Source: Rhodospirillales bacterium
GTDB lineage: Bacteria; Pseudomonadota; Alphaproteobacteria; Rhodospirillales; UBA2165
Assembly (NCBI GenBank): GCA_965221855.1
Contig: CBDCSV010000005.1
Coordinates: 355,577 to 419,576 of the forward strand
Length of the DNA stretch: 64,000 nt
Direction of reading: 5' to 3'
Under the pieces are notes generated by a model that had not been told where the DNA came from, made no database searches, and saw only the letters and a program-made list of their open reading frames with translations. The position numbers and the translations under genes are program-made. Shown here piece after piece: positions 21,295 to 56,436 of this stretch; position 1 is the stretch's first letter, and every line of letters starts with the position of its first letter.

Positions 21295-21340
21295 AAACTC
21301 AGCAAATTTGTGCCGATTACGTCTTCTCGTCTGGAAACCC

Positions 21341-23499: not shown

Positions 23500-23511
23500 G
23501 CAGGGCAGGCC

Positions 23512-26124: not shown

Positions 26125-26726
26125 ATATGCGCCTGCCGACGGTACTCATTGCACTATTTTTCCTGGCGGCGCTAACCGGATGTAAAGCGATGAAACCGAG
26201 TGATTTCGCGAGTTCGAAACCGAAGTTTGTACTGGAGGAGTACTTCGCCGGGAAAACGCAGGCATGGGGATTGTTCGAAGACCGATTCGGGAAAGTCCGC
26301 CGGCAGTTCGTTGTCGAAATAGACGGCGCTTGGGATGGCGAAATCCTTACTCTCGACGAGCACTTTGATTGGAGCGATGGCGAGAAGTCTTTCCGCCAGT
26401 GGCGAATCAAGAAGACTGCCGACGGCCGATATGAGGGCCAGGCCGACGACGTCATTGGCGTGGCGACGGGCATCGCCGAGGGCAATGCGCTCAACTGGTC
26501 CTACATTCTCGATCTGGAGACCGGTGGGAACAAAACCATGAAAGTCAAGCTGGACGACTGGATGTTCCTCCAGCCGGGCGGTGTGCTGCTCAACCGGGCG
26601 CGAATGAGCAAATTCGGGATCGAGCTCGGTCAGGTGACTATCTCGTTTACCAAACCCGGGGGCTCTCAGGCTGGCGTCAATCCCCGGCAGCCTTCCGCCG
26701 AAACCACTTCAGTAGCGGCCCAATAA
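26121..26726 (+). CDS. DUF3833 family lipoprotein
   Basis: Lipobox LTGC; EYFAGKTQAWGLFEDRFG, LDEHF.WSDG, DDWMFLQ, NRARMSKFG. Confidence 0.88.
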   Translation: MNMRLPTVLIALFFLAALTGCKAMKPSDFASSKPKFVLEEYFAGKTQAWGLFEDRFGKVRRQFVVEIDGAWDGEILTLDEHFDWSDGEKSFRQWRIKKTADGRYEGQADDVIGVATGIAEGNALNWSYILDLETGGNKTMKVKLDDWMFLQPGGVLLNRARMSKFGIELGQVTISFTKPGGSQAGVNPRQPSAETTSVAAQ

Positions 26727-27102
26727 CCGGGAAACGGCTGTATAGCTGGGACGCTGCGTCCCAATATTCTTCCTGTCTCAGTACCTTGCCGGCCCGGTCA
26801 AAGGTCAGGCGTGTCACACCTTCGACCGACCACGGCTTGCCGCCGAGAACGCCTGTGAGCGTCCAACGGAAAAAGACGGCATCGCCATCAACGGCATGGC
26901 TGTCGACAACGAATACCACATCGCCCACCGTTTCGAACATTCGGGCCAGGACCGCCCGCATCTCCGATAGGCCGTGGACTTCATGCAGCGGATCCCGGAA
27001 TACGACGTTCTCCGCCACGAACTCACCGAGAGAGGGCAGCCCGTCCACCGTCAATTCTTCAAGGTAGGTCTTGTAGCGATCGAAAGCCGTCTTCGGATCC
27101 AT
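26677..27102 (-). CDS. SnoaL/NTF2-like family protein
   Basis: VVFRDPLHEVHG, GVTRLTFD..GKV..QEEYWDAA..LY..FPVIG; 3' end overlaps the DUF3833 gene by 50 bp. Confidence 0.85.
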   Translation of the reverse strand: MDPKTAFDRYKTYLEELTVDGLPSLGEFVAENVVFRDPLHEVHGLSEMRAVLARMFETVGDVVFVVDSHAVDGDAVFFRWTLTGVLGGKPWSVEGVTRLTFDRAGKVLRQEEYWDAASQLYSRFPVIGPLLKWFRRKAAGD

Positions 27103-27103
27103 G

Positions 27104-27859
27104 TCAGCCCCCAATCATTCGCCGGGTGATGGCGAAGTAGATGCCGTAGGGCAAACACCGTCCGATTTTTAGAAGGTAGGCGAACCGGCGCGGCATGGTG
27201 ATTTCGAACTGCCCTCGTTCCAGACCCTTGATGATGCGCCGGGCTGCCGTGTCGGGCTCCATGAGAAACGGCATTGGAAATTCGTTCCTTTCGGTTAACG
27301 GCGTTCGGACAAATCCGGGATGCACGATCGAGAGAGTGATCCCGAGTTGCTCCAATTCCGGGCGCAATGCCTCGCCCATGTTCGTCAATGCCGCTTTGGA
27401 TGCGCCGTAGGCGCTTGCCATCGGCAGGCCGCGATAAGCCGTCAGCGAAGAGACAATCGCAATGCGGCCTCGGTGGCGCGGCTTCATCGCCTCAATAACC
27501 GGCGCGAGGCAGTTGACGGTACCCATGACATTTATGTCGATCTGGTCGCGAAAATTTTCGACGGTGAAATCTTCGGCGCCGAACCGGATGTAGGTGCCGG
27601 CATTGAGAACGGCGAGGTCGAGAGGTCCGATGTCCCGCTCGATGGTTCCAACCAGCGCGGCCATTCTTGATTCATCGGAAACATCGGCCGCACAGGGAAT
27701 AATCTCGCCCGACATGGCCTGACAATCGGACTTGAGGGCCTCGAGATCCGATGCGGTGCGTGCGCTTACCGCCACGCGCCAACCCTTCTCGGCGAGTTGC
27801 ATGGCGACATGCTGGCCCAAGCCTTTTCCAGCGCCGGTGATCCAGGCCACTTTGCTCAT
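27104..27859 (-). CDS. Short-chain dehydrogenase
   Basis: WITGAGKGLG, NAG, YGASKAA, PGFVRTPLT.RNEFPMPF. Confidence 0.9.
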   Translation of the reverse strand: MSKVAWITGAGKGLGQHVAMQLAEKGWRVAVSARTASDLEALKSDCQAMSGEIIPCAADVSDESRMAALVGTIERDIGPLDLAVLNAGTYIRFGAEDFTVENFRDQIDINVMGTVNCLAPVIEAMKPRHRGRIAIVSSLTAYRGLPMASAYGASKAALTNMGEALRPELEQLGITLSIVHPGFVRTPLTERNEFPMPFLMEPDTAARRIIKGLERGQFEITMPRRFAYLLKIGRCLPYGIYFAITRRMIGG

Positions 27860-27886
27860 AAGCCGTCTCTCAGCGCGGGAGCCAGA

Positions 27887-28552
27887 CTAAAGGCCACATT
27901 TTCGGCATTCGTACTCGATTTTCGAGCCGTCTTTGGCGACGAATTTGAATTTCACCCAACGACCGCGGTCATCATACCAGACCGTCGGGTTGACGTCGCC
28001 GCGATAGACGAACCTTGTCGCGGAAATCGCCTTGCCCTGGGCTGTGATCGTTTCCCGGCCTTCATTGGTAATCTTCACCTCCGCCAGGGAACCGTTCAGG
28101 GTATCGATCACCTGTCTGGATCCGATGATCCCGGGGTTCCAGTGATTGGTCGGGAACAGGTCGGCGGCGGCCACGACGACGCCCTCCGGACCCTCGACCC
28201 TCAGGCCGTCCTCCGATGTCACGATCCTGACCTCGCTGATCTCGCCGTCATCGTTCTGTTTCGAGTTCAGTTGGACCAACAGACCATCACGCCATATGGC
28301 GTCGGACCGGTAGTCGTACCGATAGATGGTGATGCCGAGAAATTTGACGGCAAGCTCAAGCGCCACACCGACTTTGACCGATTGATCGGGGGTTGTCTTG
28401 AACGTCACGGTCTGCGTCCCGACCCGGGTACCATTTCGTGTGACGTCAAAGACAATCCGCTCGCCATAGAGGGCAAATGGATCAGCAAGGGACACCACCT
28501 TTGCCGACACCGGCGTTGCGCCGGCCAGGAATGCGCTAAGGATCCCGGCCAT
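27887..28552 (-). CDS. DUF6134-like exported protein
   Basis: Signal-like N-terminus; FDVTRNGTRVG, YRYDYRSDAIW.DG.L, PTNHWN, WYDDRGRWV. Confidence 0.7.
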   Translation of the reverse strand: MAGILSAFLAGATPVSAKVVSLADPFALYGERIVFDVTRNGTRVGTQTVTFKTTPDQSVKVGVALELAVKFLGITIYRYDYRSDAIWRDGLLVQLNSKQNDDGEISEVRIVTSEDGLRVEGPEGVVVAAADLFPTNHWNPGIIGSRQVIDTLNGSLAEVKITNEGRETITAQGKAISATRFVYRGDVNPTVWYDDRGRWVKFKFVAKDGSKIEYECRKCGL

Positions 28553-28623
28553 GCCAAGATTTGTGCGGAATGATATGGGCAAGCCCGAAGCGTCCAAATT
28601 GAATTGCGACTAGGTATTTTCAA

Positions 28624-28971: not shown

Positions 28972-29940
28972 TTGCGACGCGAGGTCAGTAGAGCGACTCA
29001 GCGGGTATCCTGGGAGCGCTACGCGCGTTTGACCCAGGCTATAGGGGTCGGCGAGAGCACGGCGGTTGCCTGGCTGGCGCGCTACCGACGGACGGGCAGC
29101 GCGGCGCCGGGCCGGATGGGCGGTTACAAGCCGCGTGCGATCCGGGGCACGCACGAGCGCTGGTTGCGGGACCGAGTGGCGCGGGGGGATTTCACGCTTC
29201 ATGGGCTTGTAGGGGAGCTGGCGGAACGAGGCCTGAAGGTGGACTACCATTCAGTCTGGACCTTCGTTCACGAGCAAGGCCTGAGCTTTAAAAAAAAACG
29301 CTGGTGGCTGGCGAGCGTCGGCGCCGTGACGTGGCGCGCCGCCGCGCTCAGTGGTTGAAGTACCGCGACCGGGTTGACCCGATGCGCCTGGTGTTCATCG
29401 ACGAGACCTGGACCAGGACCAACATGGCGCCGCTGCGGGGCTGGGGGCCAAGGGGCGCGCGGCTGATCGGCGAGGCGCCACATGGCCGTTGGAACACCGC
29501 GACCTTCCTCGCCGCGCTGCGCCACGACCGAATCGATGCGCCCTGGCTCGTCGACGGGCCGATCAACGGCGAGCGCTTCCGCATCTATGTGCAGGACGTG
29601 TTGGTCCCAACCCTCAAGCCCGGCGACATCGTCATCTCAGGTCACAAAGCGGAGCGACTGACCGAATGGACAACCTCGGCTCTCACAAGTCCAAGGCCGT
29701 GCGACAGGCCATCCGACAAGCCGGCGCCCGGCTCCTGTTCCTGCCCAAGTACTCCCCCGATCTCAATCCCATCGAGCAGGTCTTCGCCAAGGTCAAGCAT
29801 CTGCTCCGCCACGAAGCGCCGCGAACCGTCGAGGCCGTCTCAGCCGCCATCGGCAGGCTCCTCGATACCTATACCTCAAAAGAATGCGCCAACTACTTCA
29901 AAAACGCTGGATACGACCCAACCTAAAATCGTACCGCTCT
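28972..29940 (+). mobile_element. Degenerate IS630-family element
   Basis: orfA ending FKKK at an A9 run; orfB FIDETW, YSPDLNPIE; right end ...GTACCGCTCT; 29-bp insertion at 29637-29665 frameshifts orfB; left end not recognisable. Confidence 0.85.
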
Positions 29941-30135
29941 GGCCCTGTACGGCGATCAGCTCATCGGCACGGCCAACCTCGGCTTCATTCTCTTGGCCGG
30001 CCTACGAGGCCCTAGCGGAGACCACGGTGTTCGAGTAACAGGCTGCCTTTCCCGTACGCATCTGATTGCCCTCGCGGCATCAAATTCCTTCAACAAATCA
30101 AAGCGTTGAGGCGTTTCAGACCGGAATTTCAATCA

Positions 30136-30171
30136 AATGTCGGTCTCGGTGGTTGCGGGCCCCCGCAACCA
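30136..30171. repeat. att-like 36-bp direct repeat, copy 1 (palindromic core)
   Basis: AATGTCGGTCTCGGTGGTTGCGGGCCCCCGCAACCA, identical to 33755-33790; core TGGTTGCGGG-CC-CCCGCAACCA. Confidence 0.9.
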
Positions 30172-30212
30172 AATAAACCCCTGAAAACATTTATTCTTTC
30201 AGGGGTTTATTT
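30171..30212. repeat. Perfect 16-bp inverted repeat (10-nt loop) abutting the att-like site
   Basis: AAATAAACCCCTGAAA (30171-30186) / TTTCAGGGGTTTATTT (30197-30212). Confidence 0.9.
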
Positions 30213-30407
30213 GTTCTGGATTCCGGCAGATTTCTTGCGATCAACACATGGTCGACGCCGATGCGCGGACGCGGATTCGTGTCCGGCCGGTGTTGAGCAT
30301 TCGAGGGCGCGCGACGCCGTTGCCGAGCTTTTGCTCCCCTAGCCGTGTCGTCTTTGACCGAGTTGCTCGGGCAATAACGCGGCTCCAAACCATTGGGGAA
30401 GCTTTTC

Positions 30408-31091
30408 TTAGGACACGGTCATTCCGCCATCGATGACAATCGTTTGGCCCGTGATCATCTGGGCGCCTGTCAGCAGAAAAGTGATGAGTTCCGCCACATC
30501 TTCCGGCTGCACATGGCGTTTGATCAATGATCTGTCGAGTGCCGCCTGCTTCCGTTCCGCCGGCCAATCGGCTGTCCAGGGAGTGGCAACCTGCCCTGGT
30601 GCAACGGCGTTAACTCTGACATTTGGAGCAAGCGCTCGCGCCAATGATCGCGTGAGGCTTACAACACCGGATTTGGAAGCCGCGTAGGGAATACTGCTTC
30701 CCTGTAGGCCGAGGCCGGCGGTCGAGGCGGTGTTTACGACAGCACCCCCGGCTTCCTTCAACGCCTCCGAGGCCGCCTTTGAGACTCTGAAGACGCTGAC
30801 AAGATTTGTGGTAAGCAATGCCTGCCATAGTTCCTCGTCGATCCTATCCAGATCCGCGGGCGGAATAGGGTCTTTCGTACCGGAAATTCCGGCGTTGTTT
30901 GCGAGGTAATCAAGGCCGCCAAGGTCGGCCACGGCCTTTTCGACCATTCGTTCGGCAGGCTCCAGGATCGAAACATTACCGGGCGCGGCAATGACATCGA
31001 GGCCCTCGGCCTTGAGCCTCCCAACTTGCTCTTGCCCCGCAGGATCATCCTCCAAGTGGTTCATCGCGACCCTCGCGCCACGGCGGGCGGC
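30408..31091 (-). pseudogene. SDR lacking its N-terminal TGxxxGxG motif, truncated by an IS630 relic
   Basis: ARRGARVAMN...NNAG...YAASK...IDGG present; upstream sequence switches to IS630 orf at about 31092. Confidence 0.8.
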
Positions 31092-31620
31092 GCATGAAGG
31101 GTTGGCGACGGTTAATCCATGTCCGGCGCGCCGCTTTGACGTCAGAGCGTTCTTTCTCCGAGGCCAGCAGCGTTTTTTTATAGGTGAAGCCCGCCTTGCA
31201 CAGCAGTTTGGACAGATTCGACGGGTCGGCCGTGATGCCATGTTCCGCCTCCAGCCAGACCGCGAGGTTCGGCATGGTCGGTCAATTCGCGGAGCGAAAT
31301 GACCTTGTGATGTCAGGCTGAGCCTTCACCTTCTCGATAAGGGCGGCTCGATAGGGGACAAGCTTGCCGGACCCTTTCGGACGACCCTGCTTGGCCGGTT
31401 CAAGCATAGCGGGCCTGAACCCGCACCGCTGTCGACGGAGCAACCTCAAACTGCTCCGCAACCTCCTGACGAGACTTGCCCGCCGATATCCCCCGCACCA
31501 TACGTAAACGAAGATCAGTCGAAATCGCTCTGCCCATTACACCACCTCCTGGACACAGGGAATCACCATTTCAAACAAAAGGGAATCCCTAACGATTCAA
31601 AATTCACGCCCGAGGCTCTA
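31092..31620 (-). mobile_element. IS630-family relic (left end, broken orfA and start of orfB)
   Basis: TAGAGCC...TTAGGGATTCCC left end; MGRAISTDLRLR at 31537; GFTYKKTLLASEKERSDVKAARRTW; internal stop and deletions. Confidence 0.8.
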
Positions 31621-31737
31621 ACATCAATTCCGTCGGTTCGTTGTATGCGATCCCGGCGTTCCAAAAGCATCCTTCGTGAAAAATACGTTCGACACAACGC
31701 TTGCATGTTCGCGCATTTTTGTGCGAGATTGCCGGTC

Positions 31738-31950
31738 GTGAACGGGCGTGAGTTCATAGCGAGGGTGAGAAAGCTGGCGCGCAGGAACGGGATCGCGGTC
31801 AGGTTCGACCGCACGAGGGGCAAGGGCAGCCACGGGACCCTATATTACGGCGACCGGCATACGGTGATGAAGGACCGAAGGAAGCCTCTCAAGACCGGCA
31901 CGCTTCACGGCATGTGCAAGCAACTCGGCATCGACCCGAGCGACCTCTAG
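31738..31950 (+). CDS. hicA: Type II toxin HicA (mRNA interferase)
   Basis: GTG start; 70 aa, basic; RGKGSHG motif; LKTGTLHGMCKQLGI. Confidence 0.88.
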   Translation: MNGREFIARVRKLARRNGIAVRFDRTRGKGSHGTLYYGDRHTVMKDRRKPLKTGTLHGMCKQLGIDPSDL

Positions 31951-31962
31951 GGAGTTCCGACC

Positions 31963-32397
31963 ATGGCAACGCGCTACAGCTACCCCATCGACCTCCACAA
32001 GGAACGCGAAGGCGGCTATTCGGTCACCTTCCCGGATTTCGGCGAGGCGTTCACCGACGGTGATACGTTCGCCGAGGCGGTCGCCGAGGCCAACGATTGC
32101 CTTAAGGAAGCGCTCGCGGGCCGCATCGCGCGGCGCGAGGACATTCCGGCGCCGAGCCCGGCCGGGGGGCGGGTGGCGGCGGTGCCGGGCGCGGTACTGG
32201 CCGCCAAGGCGGCGCTCTATGAGGCTCTCCGCGAGCAGCGGCTGTCCAACAGCGCCTTCGCGGCGGCCATGGGTATCCAGGAGAGCGAGGTTCGGCGCAT
32301 GCTCGATCCCCGCCACGCCACCAAGATCGGCAGGCTGGAGGAAGCTCTGGCCCGGTTCAAGAAGCGTCTGGTGGTCACCGTGGAAGAAGCCGCTTGA
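31963..32397 (+). CDS. hicB: Type II antitoxin HicB with C-terminal HTH
   Basis: AGGGAG RBS; GGYSVTFPDFGEAFTDGDT..EA..EA.DCL; HTH ending RRMLDPRHATKI. Confidence 0.9.
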   Translation: MATRYSYPIDLHKEREGGYSVTFPDFGEAFTDGDTFAEAVAEANDCLKEALAGRIARREDIPAPSPAGGRVAAVPGAVLAAKAALYEALREQRLSNSAFAAAMGIQESEVRRMLDPRHATKIGRLEEALARFKKRLVVTVEEAA

Positions 32398-32574
32398 GCA
32401 TGAATCGGCGCCATCGGGGGCCTTGGCTCACTCCGTAGAGACGGTTTCGACGTTTGATTCCGGACCGGCGGATCGCCTCCCGTATATCCCGAGCATGTGG
32501 GGGAGCCCGTGAGAGGTGGAGCGAGGCCGCCCGCGTGGCATCGGGCGGAGTTGTTCGTCGAAAGCAAATGATAT

Positions 32575-32775
32575 GGGTTCAATGTAGGCGGCACCGATAA
32601 CCGCGTATCGACACTCGCAGGTAGAACAGGCGATTTTCAATCGCATGGGCTCGGCCGCCGCCGGCAAAGCGACATGTTGGGGCCCACTGTCAACTTTCAT
32701 GGTCATGGAGATGAATCTGTCGCGTGGTTGTCGACGATTCCAGCGATCAGCATCACGCCTGAGAGCGTTCCCCAT
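32575..32775 (-). pseudogene. Fragment of a Cys-rich hypothetical protein
   Basis: ...ISMTMKVD...EPMRLKIACSTCECRYAVIGAAY, then the sequence degenerates; looks like half of a zinc-ribbon pair. Confidence 0.3.
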
Positions 32776-32954
32776 GGGTTTCCCCTAACGCGCGGGGATA
32801 GACCCAATATCTTCATCGTGTACCCAATGGATTCTGATCCGCGAGAGGGCAATCGGTCTGGAGGTGTCCCGCGAAACAGTTTGCAAGCCTACCTAGCGGG
32901 CTTACATTGTCCTCCAAGACAACCCATCGGACTGCCGCCCAGAAAGGGATATAC

Positions 32955-33006
32955 GGGGTCCGATTAACATGACCCCAGGGACGCCTCGCGCGTCCCTGTA
33001 TTTTTA
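32955..33006 (+). terminator. Tandem hairpins with U-tract in the NYN gene leader
   Basis: GGGGTC/GACCCC (32955-32976), then 9-bp stem CAGGGACGC/GCGTCCCTG (32976-32998), followed by TATTTTT. Confidence 0.5.
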
Positions 33007-33020
33007 TGGTGTGACGCAAT

Positions 33021-33671
33021 ATGCCCGCTGACGCCCCCGTTCAAGCCCCCCGCCATCGAGTGCGTGTGTTCGTCGACTTCTGGAACTACACGCTGTCCAT
33101 GCGGGACGCCGACGCGGCGTTCCGCACGGACTGGGCGAAGCTCGGGCCGGTGCTCGCGCGCGCCGCAGCCGCAGTCGTCGATACCGCAACCGCGGGTGAG
33201 TATCAGGGGCTGAATTTCTATGGCTCCTACGACCCGGACAGCGACGGGGACCGAAAGCTCCACCGATGGGCGACGACGGTGGTGGACACGTTTCCCGGCG
33301 TAAGCGTGTCGATCGTGCCACGCCAGCGGAAGCGCTCGCCGCCCGCATGCCCCGCTTGACGCAGCGAGGTCGCCCAATACCCCGCCTGCGGCGCCGGCAT
33401 GAGGGGGACCGAGGAGAAGGGTGTCGATGTGCGCATGGCGACCGACATGATCAGCCTCGCCTGGGCGGACAACTATGACATCGCGGGGCTGGTTTCGTCA
33501 GACCGGGATTTCGTACCGGCGGCCGAGTTCTTGGAGACGCGGGGTATCAAGGTGATCCATGGGGCGTTTCCGCCCAGAGGAGCGCAATTGACGGCGCGGT
33601 GCTGGGGAAGCGTGAATATCGCCCAGCTTCGCGAGGAATTTCGTTTCACCCGGCCCGTACACAATACTTGA
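33021..33671 (+). pseudogene. NYN (LabA/DUF88, PIN-like) RNase with inserted zinc ribbon; in-frame TGA at 33357
   Basis: VFVDFWN, EKGVDVRMATDMI, LVSSDRDFVP, GIKVIH motifs; ORFs 33021-33359 and 33399-33671 share one frame. Confidence 0.85.
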
Positions 33672-33754
33672 CAGCTCGCGGCAGACAGGGCGCCGACTAC
33701 AAATCTCTTCGCAAATTCAGAAGGTTACAACGAATCAGATCGAGATTATCAGAG

Positions 33755-33790
33755 AATGTCGGTCTCGGTGGTTGCGGGCCCCCGCAACCA
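33755..33790. repeat. att-like 36-bp direct repeat, copy 2, inside the recombinase 3' end
   Basis: Identical to 30136-30171; here the palindrome arms extend to 12 bp (GGTGGTTGCGGG / CCCGCAACCACC). Confidence 0.9.
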
Positions 33791-33865
33791 CCTTTACCGA
33801 ACTCTTGTAACCATCAAGTTCCGGGCCTTGGTCTGGGAGGCTCAGCATGTTTGCGATCGCGCCAA

Positions 33866-34921
33866 CTAGAGCGTTTCATATTTTGACGGAAGCGTATCCT
33901 GCGTTTTTGAAGTAGTTGGCGCATTGCTGTGGCTCGATGGTGTCGATGAGGCTCCCGAGATGGCGCCATAAGTCGTCGATCTCCCGCTTCTGGGCGTTTC
34001 TCATCCAGTGCTTGATTTGGGCAAAGGTCTGCTCGATGGGATTGAGGTCGGGGGAATATTTGGGCAGGAGCCACAGCTTGGCTCCGGCGGCACGGATGGC
34101 GTTTCGCACGGCTTTTGACTTGTGGCTGCCGAGATTGTCCATGATGACGATGTCGCCGGGCACCAGGGTCGGCACGAGCAGCTGCTCGACGTAGGCGCGG
34201 AAGCACACGCCATTGATGGGGCCGTCGAAGACGCAGGGCGCGGTGAACCGGTCGCAGCGCAGCGCGCCGATGAAGGTCAGGGTGTGCCACCGCCCATGGG
34301 GGGCAAAGCCGCGGACCCGCTCCCCTTTCGGCCCCCAGCCGCGCAGCGGGGCCATATTGGTCCGGATCCAGGTTTCATCAATGAATACCAGCCGTTCGGG
34401 ATCAAGCTTTGCCTGCCACGCCTTCCAGCGCCTGCGATGGCGGGCGATGTCCGCGCGCGCCCGTTCAACGGCGAACAGGGTTTTTTTTAAAGCGCAGCCC
34501 TTCACGGCGCAGAAACAGCCATACCGTGCTGTGGGATACCCTGACACCCCGAGCGGCCAACTCGTCTCTCAACCGATGCAGCGTCAGATGCGGCTCCTGG
34601 TCGATCCGGCCGACAATGAACTCCCGATGGGGCTCAAGAACCCGGCGGCGGTGACCGCCCATCTTGCCGGGCGCAACACTCCCCGTCCGCCGGTAGCGCT
34701 GCGACCACTTAACCACGCTCGAAACCGCAACCCCAAACCGAGCCGCTACAGCGCGGCAACTCTCCCCCGCCAAAACCGCCAAAACAACACGCTCTCGCAA
34801 ATCAATCGAATAAGGTCTCGCCATGAATGCTGGCCTCCTTGCCCAGCATCCATCTTGAATCATGGTTCGCCCATACTTGGGAATCCCTAAAATGATTCAA
34901 TCAATCTCAAATACGCTCTAG
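33866..34921 (-). mobile_element. IS630-family element, copy C (transposase 33876-34824, frameshifted)
   Basis: CTAG-bounded; ORF translations identical to copies A and B. Confidence 0.95.
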
Positions 34922-35404
34922 GTCGACCCTGAAGCCGTCGGGCAGCGGCGAGACGACGACTCTTTCCACTAAGTTCCTTAGAACAGCAAGGGCCTCGTCC
35001 TTGATCGTCGGGTCACTTAATGAAGCATGGAGCGAGATGACCTGGCGGCGATCAAGGTTTGGGAGATTGGACTCTCGAGGACGCCGCGCTTGGTGCTCTT
35101 ACGATTGGTGCACATACCAACAACCGACGCCGAACACCAAATCGAGAAAACCCGCTACGGTACCGAATACGGACAAAAGGAAAAATGTCTGGGGCGATCC
35201 GCCAATGACCCAAGACGGGACCGGGCACCCGGTTCGGGAGACGATGCCGGATGGCCGTTTGGCAGACGTGCCGCCAATTTCAAACCTCCCGACAATGTAA
35301 AATTCCCGACATTCAATTCCGCCGGACGCGGATAGTTTCTCACGTGCTGCATCGGCTGGAGCTTGGTGAGGCATTGTCCAGATTACCCGCCAGAGGAAAG
35401 ATCA

Positions 35405-36337
35405 ATGGCAGATGAGAAGAAAGCGACGTTCGACGCCGGCTTGATCGGCCTCGGCAATATGGGCCAGGGGCTCGGCAAGAATATTTTGGAGAACGGGTTT
35501 TCGCTGGTCGTGCAGGACCTGAAGCCGTCTGCCGTGTCCCGGCTGGAAGAGCGCGGGGCGGTCGGCGCCATCGACCTGAAGAGCCTGATGAGCCAGACCG
35601 ACATCGTGATGACCTGCCTGCCCAGCATGAGTTCCATCGAAGCGGTTTACGACTCTTCGGACGGGATCATCGCCAATGTCCGGCCCCGCATGGTGATCGT
35701 CGACTTCTCGACCAGCAGTCCGGAATTGACCCGCCGGTACGGTGCGATGCTGGGAGAGAAAGGAGCCCAGCTCATCGATACGCCCATGCTCCGAAATCCG
35801 CAGGCGGCGTTCGACGGGACGCTCCAGCTCCTGGTTTCCGGACCTGACGACGCGATCGAACGCGCGAAGCCCCTGCTCGAGGCCGTTTCCGAGGAATTGA
35901 TCCCTTCCGGAGATCTGGGCAACGGCCACGCCATCAAGCTGATCAACAACGCGGTCACCATCGCGAACGGCGCGATCCTTTGCGAGACGTTTACCGTCGC
36001 CCGAAAGATGGGCATCGACCTGAACACCCTCAACCGGGTAATGGGCGTGAGCTTCGCCGCCAGCAAAAAGCTTCCCGATACGGCCCGGCGCCTGATCGAA
36101 GACGACCACAAGAATACCTTCTCCATCGACGTGTCGCTGAAGGATATCGATCTGTTCACCAAGCTCTCCTCGGAACTCGGCGCGCTGACCCCGATCGCGG
36201 AGGCGACGCGTGATCTGTTTCGGATGGCTTCGCAGTTCGGCTACGGCGACGAGCACAATACCCGTGTGGGCAGCGTACTCGCCAGGTTCGTCGGAACGGA
36301 CTTCGGGGAGGAAGAGAGCAAGAAGGCCAGTTCTTGA
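35405..36337 (+). CDS. Beta-hydroxyacid dehydrogenase (3-hydroxyisobutyrate dehydrogenase family)
   Basis: GAGGAAAG RBS; GLIGLGNMG, VDFSTSSP, GHAIKLINN, KDIDL. Confidence 0.88.
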   Translation: MADEKKATFDAGLIGLGNMGQGLGKNILENGFSLVVQDLKPSAVSRLEERGAVGAIDLKSLMSQTDIVMTCLPSMSSIEAVYDSSDGIIANVRPRMVIVDFSTSSPELTRRYGAMLGEKGAQLIDTPMLRNPQAAFDGTLQLLVSGPDDAIERAKPLLEAVSEELIPSGDLGNGHAIKLINNAVTIANGAILCETFTVARKMGIDLNTLNRVMGVSFAASKKLPDTARRLIEDDHKNTFSIDVSLKDIDLFTKLSSELGALTPIAEATRDLFRMASQFGYGDEHNTRVGSVLARFVGTDFGEEESKKASS

Positions 36338-36395
36338 GGGAGCCCAAGGAAGGCTGGGAGAATCAGGCCCCGCTCGGCGGCCCGCCGGACCGTCT

Positions 36396-37121
36396 CTATC
36401 GGAAATAGACCACCTCGCCGCCGGCGTGGGCCTCGAGCTTGTCGATGTCGGGGACATGGATGCGGCCGTATTCGACCTGGATCAGGTCCAGCGATTCCAA
36501 GTGTTTCAGGTGTTTGTTCACGGTCGGCCGGGTCGACTTGATGATCCTTCCCAACTCTTCCTGGGTGATCTTCAGGTCGACGGCCTCGACGCCGATATGT
36601 TCGCGCTGGGCAAGAGCCATCGAAACGATCGTCCGAATGAGCCGCGTCTCGATCGGGTTCAAGGCGAGGTTTTCTATGAGGGTGTAGGCCTTGCGCAGCC
36701 GATAGCTCATAAGGCGGGCGACCATATCGTAGAGGTCGGGGAAGCGATCGAGCGCGGCCTTGAAATCGTTGCGGTGGATCAACAGCAACTCGGTCTCTCC
36801 GTAGGCATAGACCTCGTTGGGGTTTTTCTCGCCATCCATGACCGACGTTATGCCCCAGACGTTTCCCTCCGTGAGGATGGAAAAGACATGCTCGACGCCC
36901 TCGACCGATGAACTCATGCTTCGGAGACCGCCACGGACGATGGTCGCCAGGTGCGCGGGAATATCATCCCGCGTCACGAAAAGCGTTCCGTCGGGGAGGA
37001 TTTTGACCGTCGAGACATGGGCCAGATGATCGATGACCCCGGCCGGCAGACCGGCAAACCAGTAATTGCCGGCGAGGAAACTCCGCCGGTTTTCCCGGCT
37101 ATTTGGCACCGCTTGATCCAT
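36396..37121 (-). CDS. Crp/Fnr-family transcriptional regulator
   Basis: cNMP-binding-like domain; C-terminal HTH LKITQEELGRIIKSTRPTVNKHLKHL. Confidence 0.9.
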   Translation of the reverse strand: MDQAVPNSRENRRSFLAGNYWFAGLPAGVIDHLAHVSTVKILPDGTLFVTRDDIPAHLATIVRGGLRSMSSSVEGVEHVFSILTEGNVWGITSVMDGEKNPNEVYAYGETELLLIHRNDFKAALDRFPDLYDMVARLMSYRLRKAYTLIENLALNPIETRLIRTIVSMALAQREHIGVEAVDLKITQEELGRIIKSTRPTVNKHLKHLESLDLIQVEYGRIHVPDIDKLEAHAGGEVVYFR

Positions 37122-37297
37122 CGCTTCCCTGTTTGTCGGCTGCCCAACATTTCGTTATCCCGATTTTGCCTAAAATTTTTGGGATTTGTAAGGGCCGGAG
37201 GAGGCCGCGCCGGGGCTCCGGCGTCGAAGACTATGGCTCCGCAATCGGTCCGGGCGCCCGCGAGGGGAGATACAGGGGAATTTTGGAGGCGAGACGC

Positions 37298-38305
37298 ATG
37301 TTTACAGCGCAACAACTGATCGAAGCCGGCAACAAAACCGTCGAATGGGCGTCCGGCCACCTCAACGAGGACGGCAGCTTCGGCGGCGTCGAGGAACGCA
37401 TTCTCGCCTATTACAAGGCGCCCATGGCCTTCGCGCTTGCGGGCCGGGCCGGGGAAGCCGCCGCCGTGGCGAACCATCTCAAAAACACCTTCTTCCAGGA
37501 CGGCGATTTTCATGCGGTGAAGGACGATCCGACCTCCGGCGGCTCGAAGAACTACCGCAACGCCTGGATCGGGCGCGGTCTCCACACGCTCGGCTTCTAT
37601 GACCTTTCGGTTCCAACGGGGGATTTCCTGGAATCCGAAATGGACGGGAAGACCGGCGGCGTTCTCACGACCTCGTCGGTCGAAGGCCGGGACCGCGAAA
37701 CGGACTGGGGAAACACCTGCTCCACGGCGATCGCGATGCTGGCGATGGGCCGGCGCGAGCCTGCCGTCCGCTGCGGCGATTTCCTCGCCCAAATGCTCGA
37801 CGATCAGGACGGCGGCGGCGAAGCGCTTTATCTCCGACGTGACAGTACCGGCGAAATCATCACGGACATGACCGGCCGACCGGCCAACCTCTATGCCGTG
37901 ATGATCGGCGAGACGGGCCAGGTGTACTGGTACCTGGGAATGGCGATGGTCGCCTTTGCCGGCCTCTACCGGTGGACCGGCGACGAGAAGTGGAAGACGG
38001 CCGGCGACCGGATCTACGACATCGTCTCCCGCTGCGACGACGAGGTCTACGCCATCATCACCAACGGGAAGGTCGCGTGGGGCGCAGGCGCCATGTTCGC
38101 CGCGACCGGCGACAGGAAGTTCGGCCAACTCAGCGACAAAATCTGGACGTGGGTGTGCGATACCCAGACGCCCGAGGGGGTCTGGCTGCGGCCCGGGGCC
38201 GAGACCGTCGCCGATCAGGCCCTTGACGTCTCGCTCGATACGTCGCTGGAGCGGGCTTCCTACATGTTCGATCTCGCCAAAACCCTGGCGGGCGGCGATT
38301 ACTAG
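37298..38305 (+). CDS. Hypothetical protein, probable (alpha/alpha)6 barrel
   Basis: ATG 37298; good high-GC codon usage; repeated QW-like motifs (NEDGSF, QDGDF, TQTPEGVW). Confidence 0.7.
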   Translation: MFTAQQLIEAGNKTVEWASGHLNEDGSFGGVEERILAYYKAPMAFALAGRAGEAAAVANHLKNTFFQDGDFHAVKDDPTSGGSKNYRNAWIGRGLHTLGFYDLSVPTGDFLESEMDGKTGGVLTTSSVEGRDRETDWGNTCSTAIAMLAMGRREPAVRCGDFLAQMLDDQDGGGEALYLRRDSTGEIITDMTGRPANLYAVMIGETGQVYWYLGMAMVAFAGLYRWTGDEKWKTAGDRIYDIVSRCDDEVYAIITNGKVAWGAGAMFAATGDRKFGQLSDKIWTWVCDTQTPEGVWLRPGAETVADQALDVSLDTSLERASYMFDLAKTLAGGDY

Positions 38306-38323
38306 GCAGGCGGATGTGGCGCG

Positions 38324-39832
38324 TCAGTTGAAATCGGCCGGATCGGGCAGATAGAAGACGGTTCCGCCGACGGTCTGGCGCTCGATCAAACTCCGGTGGG
38401 GCCGGAGCGGCCGGAATTTCAGGAACGGCAGGACGTGTTCGTCCATCATCCCTTCGACCACGTCCGCATGCTTCGGATCGTCCACGAGGTTGTCGTCTTC
38501 GAGGGGATCGGTCTCGCTATCGAACAACTGTGCCGGCGTGCGTTCGTCTTCGTAGACGACGAGCTTGTACCGCTCCGTCTTGAACATCCCCATACCGTAG
38601 GATTCGCTGATCACCACCTTGTGGTCGGGGGCCGCGCCTTCGCCGGTAACGGCGGGCAGCAGTGATTTGGCCTGCGACGTGGGCAATTCCGCACCGGCGA
38701 TGTCCCGGACGGTCGCCGAGATATCCATGTGCTGAATCAGTTCGTCGACCTGGCCGGGCTTCGTGCCCGCCGGCGGACGAATAATGAGCGGGACCTTCAC
38801 CGCCTGATCGAAGAACACCATCTTCTTGATCATCCGGTGCTCGCCCATCATCTCCCCGTGATCCGAGGTATAGATCACCCAGGTGTTTTCCAGCCTCCCC
38901 GTCCGTTCGAGAGCGTCTACGATCTTTCCGATGGACCGGTCGATGATGCTGATATTCGCGTAGTAGGCGCGGCGCAGCTTGACGATCGCCTCGTCGGTCA
39001 TGGTCTCGGAGTCGCAGTATTTCAAGAACGCCCCGAGGAAAATGGAGAGTGGGCCCGCTTCCGGAACCTCGGGCCGCTTGAGGGACCCCGGCATCGGAAT
39101 GTCGGCGCCGTCGTACCAATCCACCGCCTCCTGGGGCGCGTCCCAGGGATCATGGGGTCCCGGAAATCCGATCTGAACGAAGAACGGCTCGTCCCTGTCG
39201 TAGTTCTCCAGCCACTCGGCCGTGAAGTCGCCGAGCCAGGCGTCCTGATAAGCGTCCAGCGGCAGCGGGATGGGATCGGCCTGCCAGGCCCGGTAGGGCG
39301 GCGCATCGGGGGCGGCCTTGCGCTTGTGTTTCTGCCTGGAGCCCAGGTAGTCGCGGTAGGTGTCCAGCAGATCCCGGCTTTCGAGGAAATCCGTGTACTT
39401 GGTGTTCAGGAAGTAGGTCGCTTCCTTGCCGACCGTCTCCAGCACCTCGGCAAAGCCGTAGCCGTTGAGCTGGCCAATTCGCTCATCGGCGTGCTTCACC
39501 CGCGGCGGTATATGGCGCCAGAAATGGGTCTTTCCGATCACCGCCGTATGGTATCCGGCGTGCTGCAATGCCTGCGCGTAGGTGGGCACGGCATCGTGGA
39601 CCTCGGACATGTTCTCGAAGACGCCGTGATCCCGCACGTAGCGCTCGGTGAGAAGGGATGCCCGCGCCGGCATGCACAGCGGCCCCTGGACGTAGACATT
39701 GCCGAATTGGACGCCCTCACTTGCCAGCCGGTCGGTGCTCGGCGTTTTGGCTATGGGATCGCCCGAGGAGCCGAGCATGTCCGCCCGCTGCTGGTCGGGC
39801 ATGAGGAGAACGATACTCGGTTTGTCAGGCAC
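38324..39832 (-). CDS. Formylglycine-type sulfatase
   Basis: GTG start; PDQQRAD, LCMPARASLLT (CxPxR), GKTH, SDHGEM.GEH; no signal peptide. Confidence 0.92.
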   Translation of the reverse strand: MPDKPSIVLLMPDQQRADMLGSSGDPIAKTPSTDRLASEGVQFGNVYVQGPLCMPARASLLTERYVRDHGVFENMSEVHDAVPTYAQALQHAGYHTAVIGKTHFWRHIPPRVKHADERIGQLNGYGFAEVLETVGKEATYFLNTKYTDFLESRDLLDTYRDYLGSRQKHKRKAAPDAPPYRAWQADPIPLPLDAYQDAWLGDFTAEWLENYDRDEPFFVQIGFPGPHDPWDAPQEAVDWYDGADIPMPGSLKRPEVPEAGPLSIFLGAFLKYCDSETMTDEAIVKLRRAYYANISIIDRSIGKIVDALERTGRLENTWVIYTSDHGEMMGEHRMIKKMVFFDQAVKVPLIIRPPAGTKPGQVDELIQHMDISATVRDIAGAELPTSQAKSLLPAVTGEGAAPDHKVVISESYGMGMFKTERYKLVVYEDERTPAQLFDSETDPLEDDNLVDDPKHADVVEGMMDEHVLPFLKFRPLRPHRSLIERQTVGGTVFYLPDPADFN

Positions 39833-39993
39833 TTCGGCGGCTCCCCCTCGGATTGACGCTACCCGCTTGGTCCGGGTATTCCGGGATAGTGGGGGCGCCC
39901 GCACGAAAAGAATGTAATCGATCCGACAAACTGGTCCGCCCATCGCCGCCATGATATTGGAATTGAAGCCTAAACCGCCTGAGAGATACGGAA

Positions 39994-42327
39994 ATGAGTG
40001 AACAGCCCCTCGGCAGTCCGGACGATGCGTCCGCCGCGCCGTCGGCGGGATTTGCGTCGACGGTCATCCGGAATCCCATCGATCCCCGGCATTTGGGTTC
40101 CGCCGCCCTGTCGCCGGCGGGAGAGTTTGCCGCCGGGTCCTACCAGAGCTTCACGCTGGTCTACACGGCGGGAAAATACGGCATCGACGACTCGGGCTCG
40201 CTCCGCATCTGCTTCCGGTTTGCGTCCGATCAGACGCGGCCCCAGTTCGAAAACCCCGAGGGACCCAACTACACGGTCATCGAGGCATCGAACAACGCGG
40301 TGCTGGAGTGTCGCTATGACCCCAAGGGCAATGTCCGGCCGTGGGACCGAACGCTCTACATTAAGGTCGTGCACGGGTTCCTGAGGGAAGGGGATACGAT
40401 CTCCGTACGGTTCGGGGTGACCGATCACGGCTCTCCCGGCATGCGTCTTCAGACGTTCTGCGAGGACTCGTTCGAGTTCCACGTTCTCGTCGATCCCATT
40501 GCCACCTTCACCTACCAGCCGCTCATCGAGCAGCCGAAGATCAAGATCGTTCCCGGTGAACGGGAGCGGTTCCTGGCCGTGATCCCGACGCTCCGGAGAG
40601 TCGGGGAGACATTCGCGCTGAAGTTCAAGGGCGAGGACCGGTGGGGCAATCCGTCGGACAAGGGCGGCGGCGCGTTCACCCTGCGCGCCAATGTTCCGGT
40701 TTCGGGATTGCCGGAAACGACCGGCCTTCCCGACGGCGCGTTCAGCGCCGAAATCCCGGGCCTGTCCGTGGCGGAAGCCGGAGACCTCGTGATCGAGCTG
40801 CTGGACGAGGCCGGAAACCCGGTCACCGGGACCAACCCCCTTCGGATCGTCGAAGAGGCCGATAAGGTCCACTACTGGGCCGACCTCCACGGCCAGTCGG
40901 AGGAGACCATCGGCACCGGCGATGCCGGCGACTATTTCGCCTTTGCCCGGGATCGGGCCTTTGTCGACGCGACGGGGCACCAGGGCAACGATTTCCAGAT
41001 CACCAACCGGTTTTGGCGGCGGTTGGACGAACTCTCGGCCCGGTTCGAGGAAGACGGCAGGTTCGTCGTCCTTCCGGGCTACGAGTGGTCGGGCAACACA
41101 GGTCTCGGCGGGGACCGCAACGTCTACTTCTCCGAAGAGGGACGCCAGATCAGGCGGTCGTCCCACGCGCTGGTCGAGGACCGCTCCGACATCGCGACGG
41201 ACTGCGCCACCGCCGCGGAGCTGTTCGAGACCCTGGCCGCCAACCGGGAATGGGACGTGGTGGTCTTCGCCCACTGCGGCGGCCGCTACGCCGATGTGAA
41301 GATGGCCCATGACGGCCGCTTCGAAAAATCCATGGAGGTCCACTCCTCGTGGGGCACCTTCGAGTGGCTTCTCCAGGACGCGCTGGAGATGGGCTACCGG
41401 AGCGGGATCGTCGCCAACTCGGACGGCCACAAGGGCCGCCCCGGGGCCAGCTACCCCGGCGCCTCGCTCTTCGGCGCGATCGGCGGGCTGACCTGCCTTG
41501 TCACCGATGAACTGAGCCGGTCGTCGGTTCTCGATTGCCTGCGCAAACGTCACCACTACGCAACGACCGGCGGGCCCAACGGGCGGATGTATATGGACGT
41601 CGCGACGGCGTTCAGCCGGGACGCGACGATCTATCACGACGATCCGGCGATCGGTCCCGCCGAGGGCCGGCCGGCGCGGTCCGCGATCATGGGCGACATC
41701 GTGCACCTGCCCGAAGGCAGCGCCGAGATCAGCGTCGATATTCACGCCGCCTGCCCCATCGAGCGGGTCGACATCTTCAACGGGCTGGACCATGTGGAGA
41801 CCGTCCGGCCCTACGGTCCGGACGAGCTCGGCAATCGCGTACGCGTTCTATGGGAGGGCGCGGAATATCGCGGCCGGTTCCGTCAGGTGATCTGGGACGG
41901 CAGCGCCGTGCTCTCGGACAATCGCATCGAAGACGCCGCTCCCATCAATTTCTTCAATCCGGACAAGACCCTGGATCGTCTCGGCGACAACGGCCTCGAA
42001 TGGAGGGCCCTGACCACCGGGAACATCGGCGGATTCGACGTCTGGCTGGCCGATCCCTACGGCGGCACCCTCAAACTGGAAACCCCGCTCGTGCAGTGCG
42101 GCATTCCCGTCGAGGAAATCGGATACGAGGACGAGATATTCGACCGGAGCGGCGTGCTGCCCCGCTATTTGAAGGTATACCGCCTGCCGGCCCGGAACCC
42201 GCACCGCCGGATGACCTTCAAACGGACCATCGGCCTCAAGGACGACGGGGACAATCCGGTCTACATCAGGCTGACCCAGGAAGACGGAACGCTGGCCTGG
42301 ACGAGCCCGATTTACATCTATCGCTAG
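39994..42327 (+). CDS. DUF3604 domain protein (PHP-like metallohydrolase)
   Basis: YWADLHGQSEET, HQGND, GYEWSG, AHCGGR, EVHSSWG, NSDGHKGRPG, R.HYATTG, AWTSPIY. Confidence 0.85.
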   Translation: MSEQPLGSPDDASAAPSAGFASTVIRNPIDPRHLGSAALSPAGEFAAGSYQSFTLVYTAGKYGIDDSGSLRICFRFASDQTRPQFENPEGPNYTVIEASNNAVLECRYDPKGNVRPWDRTLYIKVVHGFLREGDTISVRFGVTDHGSPGMRLQTFCEDSFEFHVLVDPIATFTYQPLIEQPKIKIVPGERERFLAVIPTLRRVGETFALKFKGEDRWGNPSDKGGGAFTLRANVPVSGLPETTGLPDGAFSAEIPGLSVAEAGDLVIELLDEAGNPVTGTNPLRIVEEADKVHYWADLHGQSEETIGTGDAGDYFAFARDRAFVDATGHQGNDFQITNRFWRRLDELSARFEEDGRFVVLPGYEWSGNTGLGGDRNVYFSEEGRQIRRSSHALVEDRSDIATDCATAAELFETLAANREWDVVVFAHCGGRYADVKMAHDGRFEKSMEVHSSWGTFEWLLQDALEMGYRSGIVANSDGHKGRPGASYPGASLFGAIGGLTCLVTDELSRSSVLDCLRKRHHYATTGGPNGRMYMDVATAFSRDATIYHDDPAIGPAEGRPARSAIMGDIVHLPEGSAEISVDIHAACPIERVDIFNGLDHVETVRPYGPDELGNRVRVLWEGAEYRGRFRQVIWDGSAVLSDNRIEDAAPINFFNPDKTLDRLGDNGLEWRALTTGNIGGFDVWLADPYGGTLKLETPLVQCGIPVEEIGYEDEIFDRSGVLPRYLKVYRLPARNPHRRMTFKRTIGLKDDGDNPVYIRLTQEDGTLAWTSPIYIYR

Positions 42328-42337
42328 GCCCGAATTC

Positions 42338-43489: not shown

Positions 43490-43561
43490 CGGGCCGTCCG
43501 CCGGCGGAACCGCCGAATTTCGGTTCGCGCTCGCCGGGCGGACGGGAGAGAGGAGCGGGGA

Positions 43562-44689: not shown

Positions 44690-44711
44690 ATACGGCGCGG
44701 TTGGAGGACCG

Positions 44712-45899: not shown

Positions 45900-45938
45900 A
45901 CGGCACGGGCTCTTGGAATTCGAAAGTGGGGAAAATCG

Positions 45939-56420: not shown

Positions 56421-56436
56421 ATACGGAGAGCATATT

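Follow-up and report, generated by a model that had tools for sequence, protein, structure and literature searches.

Relic joints of serine-recombinase elements at the initiator tRNA 3' end as the probable source of a 36-bp repeat pair in a Rhodospirillales genome

In a 64-kb stretch of the genome of a Rhodospirillales bacterium (contig CBDCSV010000005.1; the whole stretch is hereafter called the window), an exact 36-mer, AATGTCGGTCTCGGTGGTTGCGGGCCCCCGCAACCA, occurs twice on the plus strand, at 30136-30171 and 33755-33790, where chance would be expected to produce no such pair. The two copies are probably relic joints of integrative elements that encode a large serine recombinase (LSR) and use the initiator tRNA gene (tRNA-fMet) as their target, inserting at its 3' end; the 3.6 kb between them is a scrambled interval. 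Two identifications are central to this reading: the last 12 bases of the 36-mer, CCCCCGCAACCA, are the 3' end of tRNA-fMet (C65-A76), and the 24 bases before them correspond to the P arm, the element-side arm in the attP of a large LSR family. An earlier interpretation of the sequence alone (the original prediction) had instead proposed a cassette without an integrase, bracketed by identical palindromic att-like sites in the tail of a serine recombinase gene. The direct repeat and the recombinase-type C-termini that it reported on the minus strand (...LVAGARNHRDRHLIEIPV at copy 1 and ...VVAGARNHRDRHSLIISI at copy 2, each followed by a stop codon) are confirmed, as is its view of the motif as a serine-recombinase recombination site. 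The sites are nevertheless not free-standing, as one half of the palindrome is the tRNA-fMet end that constitutes the real target.

Similarity between the copies extends beyond the 36-mer only leftwards, to 91 nt at 74% (30081-30171 and 33700-33790). The 22-nt core, TGGTTGCGGG-CC-CCCGCAACCA, is a perfect 10+10 palindrome with a CC center and no GTTRRRY, and it has just these two sites in the window, with shuffled sequences yielding an expectation of 0.00. The identity of the two 36-mers is no sign of a recent duplication, because nine loci of unrelated genomes match the same 36 nt at 100% (36-39 nt aligned). The hairpin next to copy 1 is perfect, as had been noted, although its stem measures 17 rather than 16 bp (30170-30186 paired with 30197-30213 around a 10-nt loop); it folds at -38 kcal/mol (z = -5.1), and a related hairpin is present at another locus, L055 (motif loci are labelled L003-L088 and further contigs L089-L097). 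We read this hairpin as the trailer and terminator of tRNA-fMet, i.e., the B' side of the joint.

A search of 185,579 species genomes with the exact 24-mer GGTGGTTGCGGGCCCCCGCAACCA recovered 86 stretches with one to seven copies per genome, mostly from Alphaproteobacteria along with some metagenome-assembled genomes of other phyla; among plasmids, megablast matched only the ~40-nt motif, in Ensifer adhaerens and Paracoccus aminovorans, and a collection of viral contigs gave no match to the 24-mer. When all copies are aligned in one orientation, the sequences to their left fall into families conserved over 60-140 nt, and those to the right are unrelated between loci; on this side lies either a rho-independent terminator, shortly past an AAT-like trailer, or an opposite-strand gene, entered from its 3' end. 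The polarity and junction context of the motif are thus constant across loci, which is not the behavior of the ordinary dispersed repeat that the original prediction had named as its possible undoing. At six loci (L013, L019, L033, L054, L076, and L087) an intact opposite-strand open reading frame (ORF) of 550-640 aa ends in the motif, finishing in ...TLVAGARNHRVRHLIEVPV or ...VVAGARNHLYRTKFIWKKS before the stop codon; these ORFs contain the Pfam Resolvase, Recombinase, and Zn_ribbon_recom domains and are the intact recombinases with a motif-encoded tail that the original prediction had suggested should be sought elsewhere. A protein search with the LSR from L033 retrieved more than 7,800 matches at E < 1e-30.

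The C-termini of these LSRs fall into two classes that fit an integrated state on the one hand and a free or neighbor-joined state on the other. Among the 120 best homologs, 83 end in G[FLI]EPxTxxL, a sequence encoded antisense to tRNA-fMet, the stop codon of which falls within the anticodon loop; in at least 12 others, the tail is encoded by the flank of the P arm (...VAGARN...). After dereplication, 47 of 83 P-flank tails end in V or I in the LSR frame, against 10/77 and 13/77 in the other frames, and a terminal hydrophobic-x-hydrophobic pattern is seen in 49 of 83, against 9/77 and 6/77; further, a tail of exactly 17 aa counted from VAGARNH is found in the LSR frame of 33 of the 83 flanks, with no comparable peak in the other frames. 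One flank family ends in an ssrA-like ...FD(A/V/T)AA, and the integrated tail, ...TFRL, is likewise hydrophobic-x-hydrophobic. Judged from these frame-specific sequence patterns, the P-flank-encoded tails look selected. A second, degenerate half-palindrome (TGGTTGcGGGcc-like) lies about 45 nt left of the P arm, just past the stop codon of the tail, in L012 (~150-200), L066, L039, L071 (3880-3930), L081, L058, and the window (30102-30125), where that of copy 1 has shrunk to GCGTTGAGGCG; it could be an accessory site or the remains of an older joint.

The target itself is revealed by Ensifer adhaerens, whose replicons supply an empty attB, an attL, and an attR, and hence the attP. On pCasidaAB (strain Casida A), an LSR homolog ending in ...SVVAGAGFEPAAFRL has its 3' end in the reverse complement of a tRNA-Met(CAT), forming attL (...CCTG-CC-CCCGCAACCA-CCGATTCAGACACC, followed by the LSR). 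This tRNA lies 3.8 kb from tRNA-Ala and tRNA-Ile and is therefore the distal tRNA of an rrn operon; it also shows a C1xA72 mismatch, which we take to be typical of initiator tRNAs and to mark the target as tRNA-fMet. The exact motif recurs 29.3 kb away with a terminator next to it on the outward side, as attR (CATGTCGGTATCGGTGGTTGCGGG-CC-CCCGCAACCA-AATCAAAAA). In strain E-60, identical upstream sequence leads into a tRNA followed directly by the identical trailer and terminator, giving the empty attB (GCAGGTTCAAATCCTG-CC-CCCGCAACCA-AATCAAAAA), and the attP deduced from the three is the palindrome. The comparison bounds strand exchange to the shared G+CCCCCGCAACCA, a 13-nt identity block, and crossover is likely to occur at the central CC (tRNA C65-C66), to go by symmetry. 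The palindromic form is due to the P arm being a mirror image of the tRNA acceptor 3' strand plus CCA; the half-sites are inverted around CC, and at L004, L096, L033, and window copy 2 the mirroring extends into additional arms.

The same tRNA end also serves other elements. L092 holds a 10.3-kb element with a TrwC relaxase, toxin-antitoxin (TA) genes, and an LSR, which adjoins a tyrosine-integrase island that likewise uses tRNA-fMet. The LSR elements are integrative and at least partly mobilizable, and are not phages. Tyrosine-integrase islands at L092 (11640-12995) and L097 (5400-5738) carry a copy of the tRNA 3' half to which LSR elements have become joined. On plasmid AB of E. adhaerens Corn53 (L090, 1480-1515), an unrelated joint, ...tctgtacattcagGCCCCCGCAACCA, occupies the same tRNA-fMet end.

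These observations suggest the following mechanism. The target in Alphaproteobacteria would be the tRNA-fMet at the end of an rrn operon, with attB reading ...GGTTCAAATCCTG-CC-CCCGCAACCA-AAT...terminator. The attP would be an imperfect palindrome of ~46-48 bp (P arm-TGGTTGCGGG-CC-CCCGCAACCA-P' arm) lying within the 3'-terminal part of the LSR gene that the element itself carries, its right half corresponding to the last 10 nt of the tRNA. Exchange within the 13-nt block would leave an intact tRNA at attL beside an outward-reading LSR; the 12 nt that originally ended the tRNA would, together with trailer and terminator, come to lie on the opposite side of the element, making attR the P arm followed by CCCCCGCAACCA and AAT.... 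As the LSR ORF spans the joint, the integrated form would acquire the antisense-tRNA tail, ...VAGAGFEPATFRL, with its stop in the anticodon loop, and the same ORF on a circle or beside another element would acquire the P-flank tail of its neighbor, ...VAGARNHRDRHSLIISI. New elements would also enter occupied sites, generating heterologous tandem arrays with hybrid joints between the P flank of one element and the P' arm of another (P/P').

Evidence for such arrays is found in the way in which arms, flanks, and LSRs are combined across loci. The outer arms occur as type 1, (A)TGTCGGTCTCGG, type 2, GTTCGGTA(A/T)AGG, and others; joints may be symmetric (type 1/type 1 in L004 and type 2/type 2 in L096) or hybrid (type 2/type 1 in L033, L054, and protein relatives; type 1/type 2 in window copy 2 and L056). 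One LSR may have two different left flanks inside a single genome (L019, L087), and the flank family of copy 2 stands beside three LSR types (in L050, L004, and the window) as well as beside terminators (L057, L055, L052). Therefore, a joint with an LSR on the right and a P flank on the left is usually the border of two different elements. The serial arrays envisaged by the original prediction thus do exist at this site, but they represent island accretion, comparable to that of cis-mobilizable elements (CIMEs) or psi-SCC, by elements that normally carry an LSR, and not the assembly of integron cassettes. In Pelagibius sp. (NZ_OZ245757.1, 4995487-5005210; L010 and L080), a 9.7-kb recombinase-less unit lies between direct copies of the motif; almost all of it is a single ORF of 2608 aa, it ends in an attR-type joint, and at its left motif copy an IS630-type element sits in a CTAG of the tail-coding flank.

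Within the window, the two copies represent joints of different kinds. Copy 1 is an attR-type relic in which a P flank (P0) is followed by the tRNA end and then by AAT and the hairpin. On its minus strand P0 encodes an LSR tail, ...RDRHLIEIPV, with the stop at 30116-30118, and homologous flanks are found in L065 (88%), L069, L013, and L050. Copy 2 is a hybrid joint between the type 1 flank (P1) of an element that ends in a NYN-domain gene and the type 2 P' arm of an older LSR. The minus strand of P1 encodes ...RDRHSLIISI, with the stop at 33735-33737. A recombinase remnant adjoins copy 2 alone; copy 1 is preceded on the minus strand by the hairpin rather than by coding sequence. The proposed insertion into the 3' end of a recombinase gene, with supply of a replacement stop, accordingly stands for copy 2 and fails for copy 1, which lies outside any recombinase gene.

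The remnant at copy 2 is split by an insertion sequence (IS) of the IS630 family (IS630-B), the limits of which were set from three identical copies in the window. Its removal restores a 103-codon ORF, residues 11-101 of which align to LSR residues ~465-578 (E 3e-10), the first ~464 LSR codons having been deleted; the nearest relatives of the remnant are also truncated (P0241-P0245) and end in ...SSVKVVAGAGFEPATFRL. The history of this copy is illuminated by L097, a metagenomic contig that is collinear with, and over 5.1 kb 92.9% identical to, the window at 40017..34920 and 33869..33778, with the same dehydrogenase-Crp-sulfatase genes. L097 lacks IS630-B, and where the window enters the P1 flank it runs on into the 3' half of tRNA-fMet, such that the tail of the LSR remnant is ...VAGAGFEPATFRL in L097 versus ...VAGARNHRDRHSLIISI in the window. 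L097 represents the allele lacking the left-hand insertion at copy 2 and identifies the LSR remnant, with all sequence to its right, as the older backbone. The three IS630-B copies (2847-3902, 6494-7550, and 33866-34921) are 100% identical over 1.05 kb, share one orientation, and all lie in CTAG with a TA duplication; their identity points to recent activity.

The interval between the copies is not the self-contained 3.6-kb cassette that had been proposed but a mosaic, assembled from four or more unrelated segments. Its contents are as first described (hicAB, a NYN gene, a short-chain dehydrogenase/reductase [SDR] relic, and an IS630 relic), with Pfam in agreement apart from a weak HicA match, and Pfam detects no recombinase between the repeat copies. 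At the left end lies the tRNA trailer with the hairpin and a spacer. The SDR relic next to it has lost its N-terminal ~35 codons; an intact, 254-aa homolog that is 94% identical occurs in L093-L095 in another context, where synteny with the window breaks ~70 nt past the stop codon and no tRNA-fMet fragment lies beside the intact gene. In L093 (GCA_022823235.1, JAJDXO010000037.1, 11181-14480), a different mobile-looking block with AbiEii/AbiEi, HTH_17, NikA-like, MZB, and YAcAr genes occupies the place that the spacer, hairpin, and motif take in the window, ~70 nt past the SDR gene, and this point may be a recurrent insertion boundary. The IS630 relic probably marks where a rearrangement joined the SDR piece to the hicAB/NYN piece. 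Within the latter, the true start of the hicA-like gene is probably internal, and the 563 nt at the NYN/flank end (33228-33790) are 94% identical to L057, where they abut a terminator as an attR; apart from this locus, tblastx comparison of the window with the motif loci gave only noise. From 33228 on, the NYN pseudogene thus belongs to the right end of an LSR element, which probably also carries hicAB. Exact-protein look-ups with hicB and with a neighboring SDR matched no record.

One insertion cannot explain the pair, because the left site is of the type that ends an array on the right and the right site is an internal joint; contrary to the original view, the copies differ in type (P0/B' at the left, an element-right-end type, and P1/P2' at the right) and do not enclose a single inserted unit in the canonical geometry. 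The simplest history would comprise two LSR integrations, one ending at copy 1 and the other setting the NYN-bearing element before the old LSR, with the two joints then united by a deletion or rearrangement at the IS630 relic.

Several points weigh against the relic-joint reading. The window has no tRNA gene by ARAGORN, no rRNA gene, and no intact LSR, only tails and the 103-codon remnant, and the partner joints of both copies are unseen. An attR-type joint to the left of a P/P' joint is unlike a simple array, so that at least one rearrangement must be assumed. The view of the copy-1 hairpin as a native tRNA-fMet trailer goes by analogy with Ensifer, many other loci, and the related hairpin in L055; no relative was found with that trailer behind an intact tRNA. 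The crossover position is confined only to the 13-nt block, and some of the tblastn "LSR remnants" beside terminators are too short to classify. In metagenome scans, neither the copy-1/hairpin joint nor the P1-flank/motif joint had a match.

A pair made up of an attR-type and an attP-type site is not a canonical LSR substrate, and since the window has neither an LSR nor a tRNA gene, the locus would be inert unless an LSR acted in trans. We consider it probably inert now. It is unlikely that the joints are still active, with an LSR elsewhere in the genome recombining copy 2 with an empty tRNA-fMet, or with RecA deleting the 3.6 kb through the repeats. Both sites are indeed sequence-perfect over 36 nt, homologs of the LSR are frequent and multi-copy in related genomes, and single LSRs with different left partners within a genome are seen, as noted above; but the window encodes no LSR, and the P and P' arms of copy 2 differ in type, so that one dimer species may not bind both. 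Unlikely, too, is a more ambitious generalization of the relic-joint reading, according to which tRNA-fMet loci would be open-ended arrays for acquisition by LSRs. Each arrival would re-create an attP-like site and complete the ORF of its neighbor with a selected hydrophobic tail, LSR-less segments such as the 3.6 kb of the window and the 9.7 kb of Pelagibius would have moved in trans, and the swap of tails would adjust how stable the recombinase is, or in which direction it acts, as the element passes between its integrated and free states.

We regard as improbable the proposal that the 3.6 kb is a single non-autonomous cassette, which entered as a circle at the core in a recombinase 3' end and could build integron-like arrays. 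It is favored by the presence of direct site repeats around a unit with no recombinase inside, by the comparable LSR-less unit in Pelagibius, and by L097, from which an insertion of DNA at the copy-2 core is evident. Formally, a circle with a P1/B' joint recombining with a P0/P2' joint would give the observed order. The joint of that circle (P1 flank, AAT, and hairpin) would read ...TCAGAGAATGTCGGTCTCGGTGGTTGCGGGCCCCCGCAACCAAATAAACCCCTG, and the joint left by deletion (P0 flank and CCTTTACCGAAC) would read ...CAATCAAATGTCGG...CGCAACCACCTTTACCGAAC. However, this would call for a reaction between an attR-type and an attP-type site, which is non-canonical for an LSR, or for RecA acting on 36 bp. 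The interval is moreover a mosaic, with a tRNA trailer at its left end, a truncated SDR gene and an IS relic at an internal joint, and at its right end 563 nt from an element that is attR-joined elsewhere; the identity of the 36-mers, complete even in unrelated genomes, is uninformative, and elements of this family normally carry their LSR.

It is very improbable that the copies are attL and attR of one element that shrank and lost its recombinase. Direct repeats 3.6 kb apart and TA genes such as hicAB, typical island cargo, would agree with this, but an integrated element has the tRNA joined to P'-LSR on its left and P/B' on its right, whereas here P/B' is on the left and the P flank joined to P'-LSR on the right; the LSR remnant lies outside the interval, and L097 assigns it, with everything rightward, to the older backbone. 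There is next to no chance that the motif is an ordinary dispersed palindromic repeat (REP- or RIME-like), a terminator, or a small RNA gene with coincidental coding, in spite of its GC-rich perfect palindrome, its good folding, and the terminators that are often next to it, in view of its rarity (two copies in the 64-kb window, no more than seven in any genome, and 86 stretches overall among the genomes searched), its constant polarity and junction context, its contiguity with intact LSR genes, the frame-specific tail signal, and the lack of Rfam or tRNA matches.

Other candidates were also set aside. A non-coding RNA or tRNA gene at the repeat was rejected as Rfam (nothing at E <= 1 over 27-37 kb, nothing at the gathering threshold over the whole window) and ARAGORN returned no match. 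An IS630 end or a composite transposon was discarded as the mapped IS ends lie outside the repeat, and as IS630-A, the element left of copy 1, is only about 71-79% related to IS630-B (71% by blastn) and inverted relative to it. A group II intron, oriT, parS, and attC were dropped after the link to the LSR and the tRNA emerged.

The system may be compared with several known cases of site-specific accretion. SCCmec with psi-SCC, and CIMEs with integrative and conjugative elements (ICEs), arise by successive site-specific insertions at one site and include recombinase-less units between direct att repeats; SCC elements use LSRs and target rlmH, and other genes serve as targets in the remaining cases. 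The tandem arrays at one chromosomal site and, in the window, the recombinase-less unit between direct att repeats are alike, but the target here is a tRNA, and the bounding sites in those systems are recombinable pairs, whereas those in the window are an attR-type P/B' and an attP-type P/P'. The integrase of SSV1, a tyrosine recombinase with a tRNA target, has its attP inside int, such that integration splits and inactivates the gene, and in mycobacteriophage BPs, which also uses a tyrosine recombinase, integration alters the repressor. In common with these, the attP here lies within a gene and integration changes the product; however, the swap is confined to the final ~13 codons of a serine recombinase, and both versions end hydrophobically. 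With integron attC cassettes there is a shared serial addition of DNA at a recombination site, with a palindromic site ending each unit. The present elements nevertheless have no IntI, attI, or Pc and no attC architecture (R''-L''...L'-R', GTTRRRY, extrahelical bases); their units are whole islands of 10-70 kb that usually have their own recombinase, and the chemistry would be a double-stranded serine attP x attB reaction.

The closest general framework is that of islands targeting tRNA and tmRNA genes, as defined by Islander/TIGER (PMC4383910) and classified in the sublocation scheme of Williams 2002. As in these islands, insertion restores the tRNA 3' end, the displaced fragment is found at the far end, the integrase gene is tRNA-proximal, and tandem arrays form; the differences are the use of an LSR instead of a tyrosine integrase, an identity block of only 13 nt, an attP that is a near-perfect palindrome on the acceptor 3' strand, and a recombinase ORF that crosses the joint to end antisense in the tRNA. 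Of these island features, the window retains the displaced tRNA 3' fragment (copy 1), and the intact recombinase-proximal tRNA, not found in the window, is present in Ensifer; the window thus holds relic joints, not a complete island. The nearest precedent for a serine recombinase at a tRNA-Met 3' end is phiPam-6 of Paracoccus aminophilus, an inducible tailed phage in an elongator tRNA-Met with a 17-bp repeat, CCCTCCTCCGCTACCAT (PMC3925955). Going by its description, it resembles the present elements as an alphaproteobacterial serine-recombinase element at a tRNA-Met 3' end with a short direct repeat ending in ...ACCA(T) (PMC3925955), and it differs from them in that they carry relaxase and TA genes, are not found among viral contigs, and target the initiator tRNA. 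A full-text literature search yielded no account of tRNA-fMet-targeting LSR elements, of an attP inside the LSR 3' end, or of an antisense-tRNA tail, an absence that is no proof of novelty. The system is thus of a known kind, the tRNA-targeting island with tandem accretion, in a form that seems little described.

What emerges is a very large LSR family (>7,800 close homologs) whose natural attB, the initiator tRNA 3' end, is universally conserved among bacteria. These enzymes are possible tools, being serine integrases for which practically every bacterium has a target. For genome annotation, the 24-mer flags island ends, and LSR ORFs ending in ...GFEPATFRL flag integrated copies. With regard to genome stability, rrn-distal tRNA-fMet sites gather heterologous islands, IS elements, and relic joints, and the window itself is an accretion zone in decay rather than a cassette system that still works. 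Its features are listed in Table 1.

Table 1. Features at and around the two 36-mer copies (window coordinates)
Feature	Position	Strand	Basis
IS630-family element A (IS630-A), frameshifted transposase, left of copy 1	28972..30038	+	ORFs, inverted repeats, weak HTH_32
P0 flank, right-end flank of LSR element	30081..30135	-	74% repeat with 33700-33754
Copy 1 P arm, type 1 element-side LSR half-site AATGTCGGTCTCGG-TGGTTGCGGG	30136..30159	+	same arm at Ensifer attR
Copy 1 displaced tRNA-fMet 3' end (C65-A76, CCCCCGCAACCA)	30160..30171	+	identical to tRNA-Met(CAT) 3' end in L091, L089
Likely crossover dinucleotide CC, copy 1	30160-30161	+	
Terminator-like 17-bp hairpin after AAT trailer	30170..30213	+	inverted repeat; same layout at Ensifer empty site and attR
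Trailer, hairpin, and spacer piece	30172-~30340		
Spacer, hairpin to SDR 3' flank	30214..30340	.	L093 alignment; synteny with SDR-bearing relatives stops at ~30340
SDR relic without N-terminal ~35 codons	30408..31090	-	Pfam adh_short_C2, profile positions 16-236 only
IS630-family relic, HTH region only	31045..31540	-	HTH_33 match
hicA-like toxin gene, weak match	31645..31950	+	PF07927, E 5e-5, 23.8 bits vs 27-bit Pfam cutoff
hicB antitoxin gene	31963..32397	+	PF15919, E 2.7e-9
NYN-domain pseudogene, in-frame TGA at 33357-33359	33021..33671	+	PF01936 on C-terminal half
P1 flank	33700..33754	-	repeat with P0 flank, homologous flanks elsewhere
LSR pseudogene 3' piece, tail included	33735..33868	-	
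Copy 2 P arm, type 1	33755..33778	+	
Copy 2 core, identical to tRNA-fMet 3' end	33779..33790	+	break versus L097 within G + these 12 nt
Copy 2 outer P' arm, type 2 CCTTTACCGAAC, mirror of GTTCGGTAAAGG, encodes ...SSVK of LSR	33791..33802	+	
IS630-B, 1050-bp body, TA duplication in CTAG target, within LSR remnant	33869..34918	-	DDE_3 and HTH matches
LSR pseudogene upstream piece	34921..35098	-	

At least eight IS copies or relics are present in the window. Besides those of the IS630-B type, there are two 100%-identical, 1216-bp copies of an ISAs1-like IS (DDE_Tnp_1_assoc + DDE_Tnp_1) at 1184-2399 and 18333-19548, in direct orientation and 17 kb apart, which could form a composite unit, an IS256-type transposase (Transposase_mut) at 10129-11385 (-), and another IS630-type DDE_3 transposase at 54074-54637 (-) that is ~72% related to IS630-B. 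Pfam scans of 56 window ORFs, which were not exhaustive for small ORFs, found no Phage_integrase. Directly left of IS630-A, a conserved block (21308-28597) encodes an amine oxidase, a cyclopropane-fatty-acid-synthase-like CMAS protein, and MFS_2, DUF3833, SnoaL, SDR, and DUF6134 proteins. Toward the right end of the window lies a two-partner secretion (TPS) system with a ShlB/FhaC-type transporter (56107-58176) and a TpsA exoprotein (58217-64000) of at least 1927 aa, which has a TPS domain and a third-position GC content (GC3) of 0.92 and continues past the window end. Finally, a cluster at 38324-47516, with two sulfatases, two sulfotransferases, an Fe-alcohol dehydrogenase, and a DUF3604-like protein, is 93% syntenic with L097 and suggests a marine, polysaccharide-degrading host.

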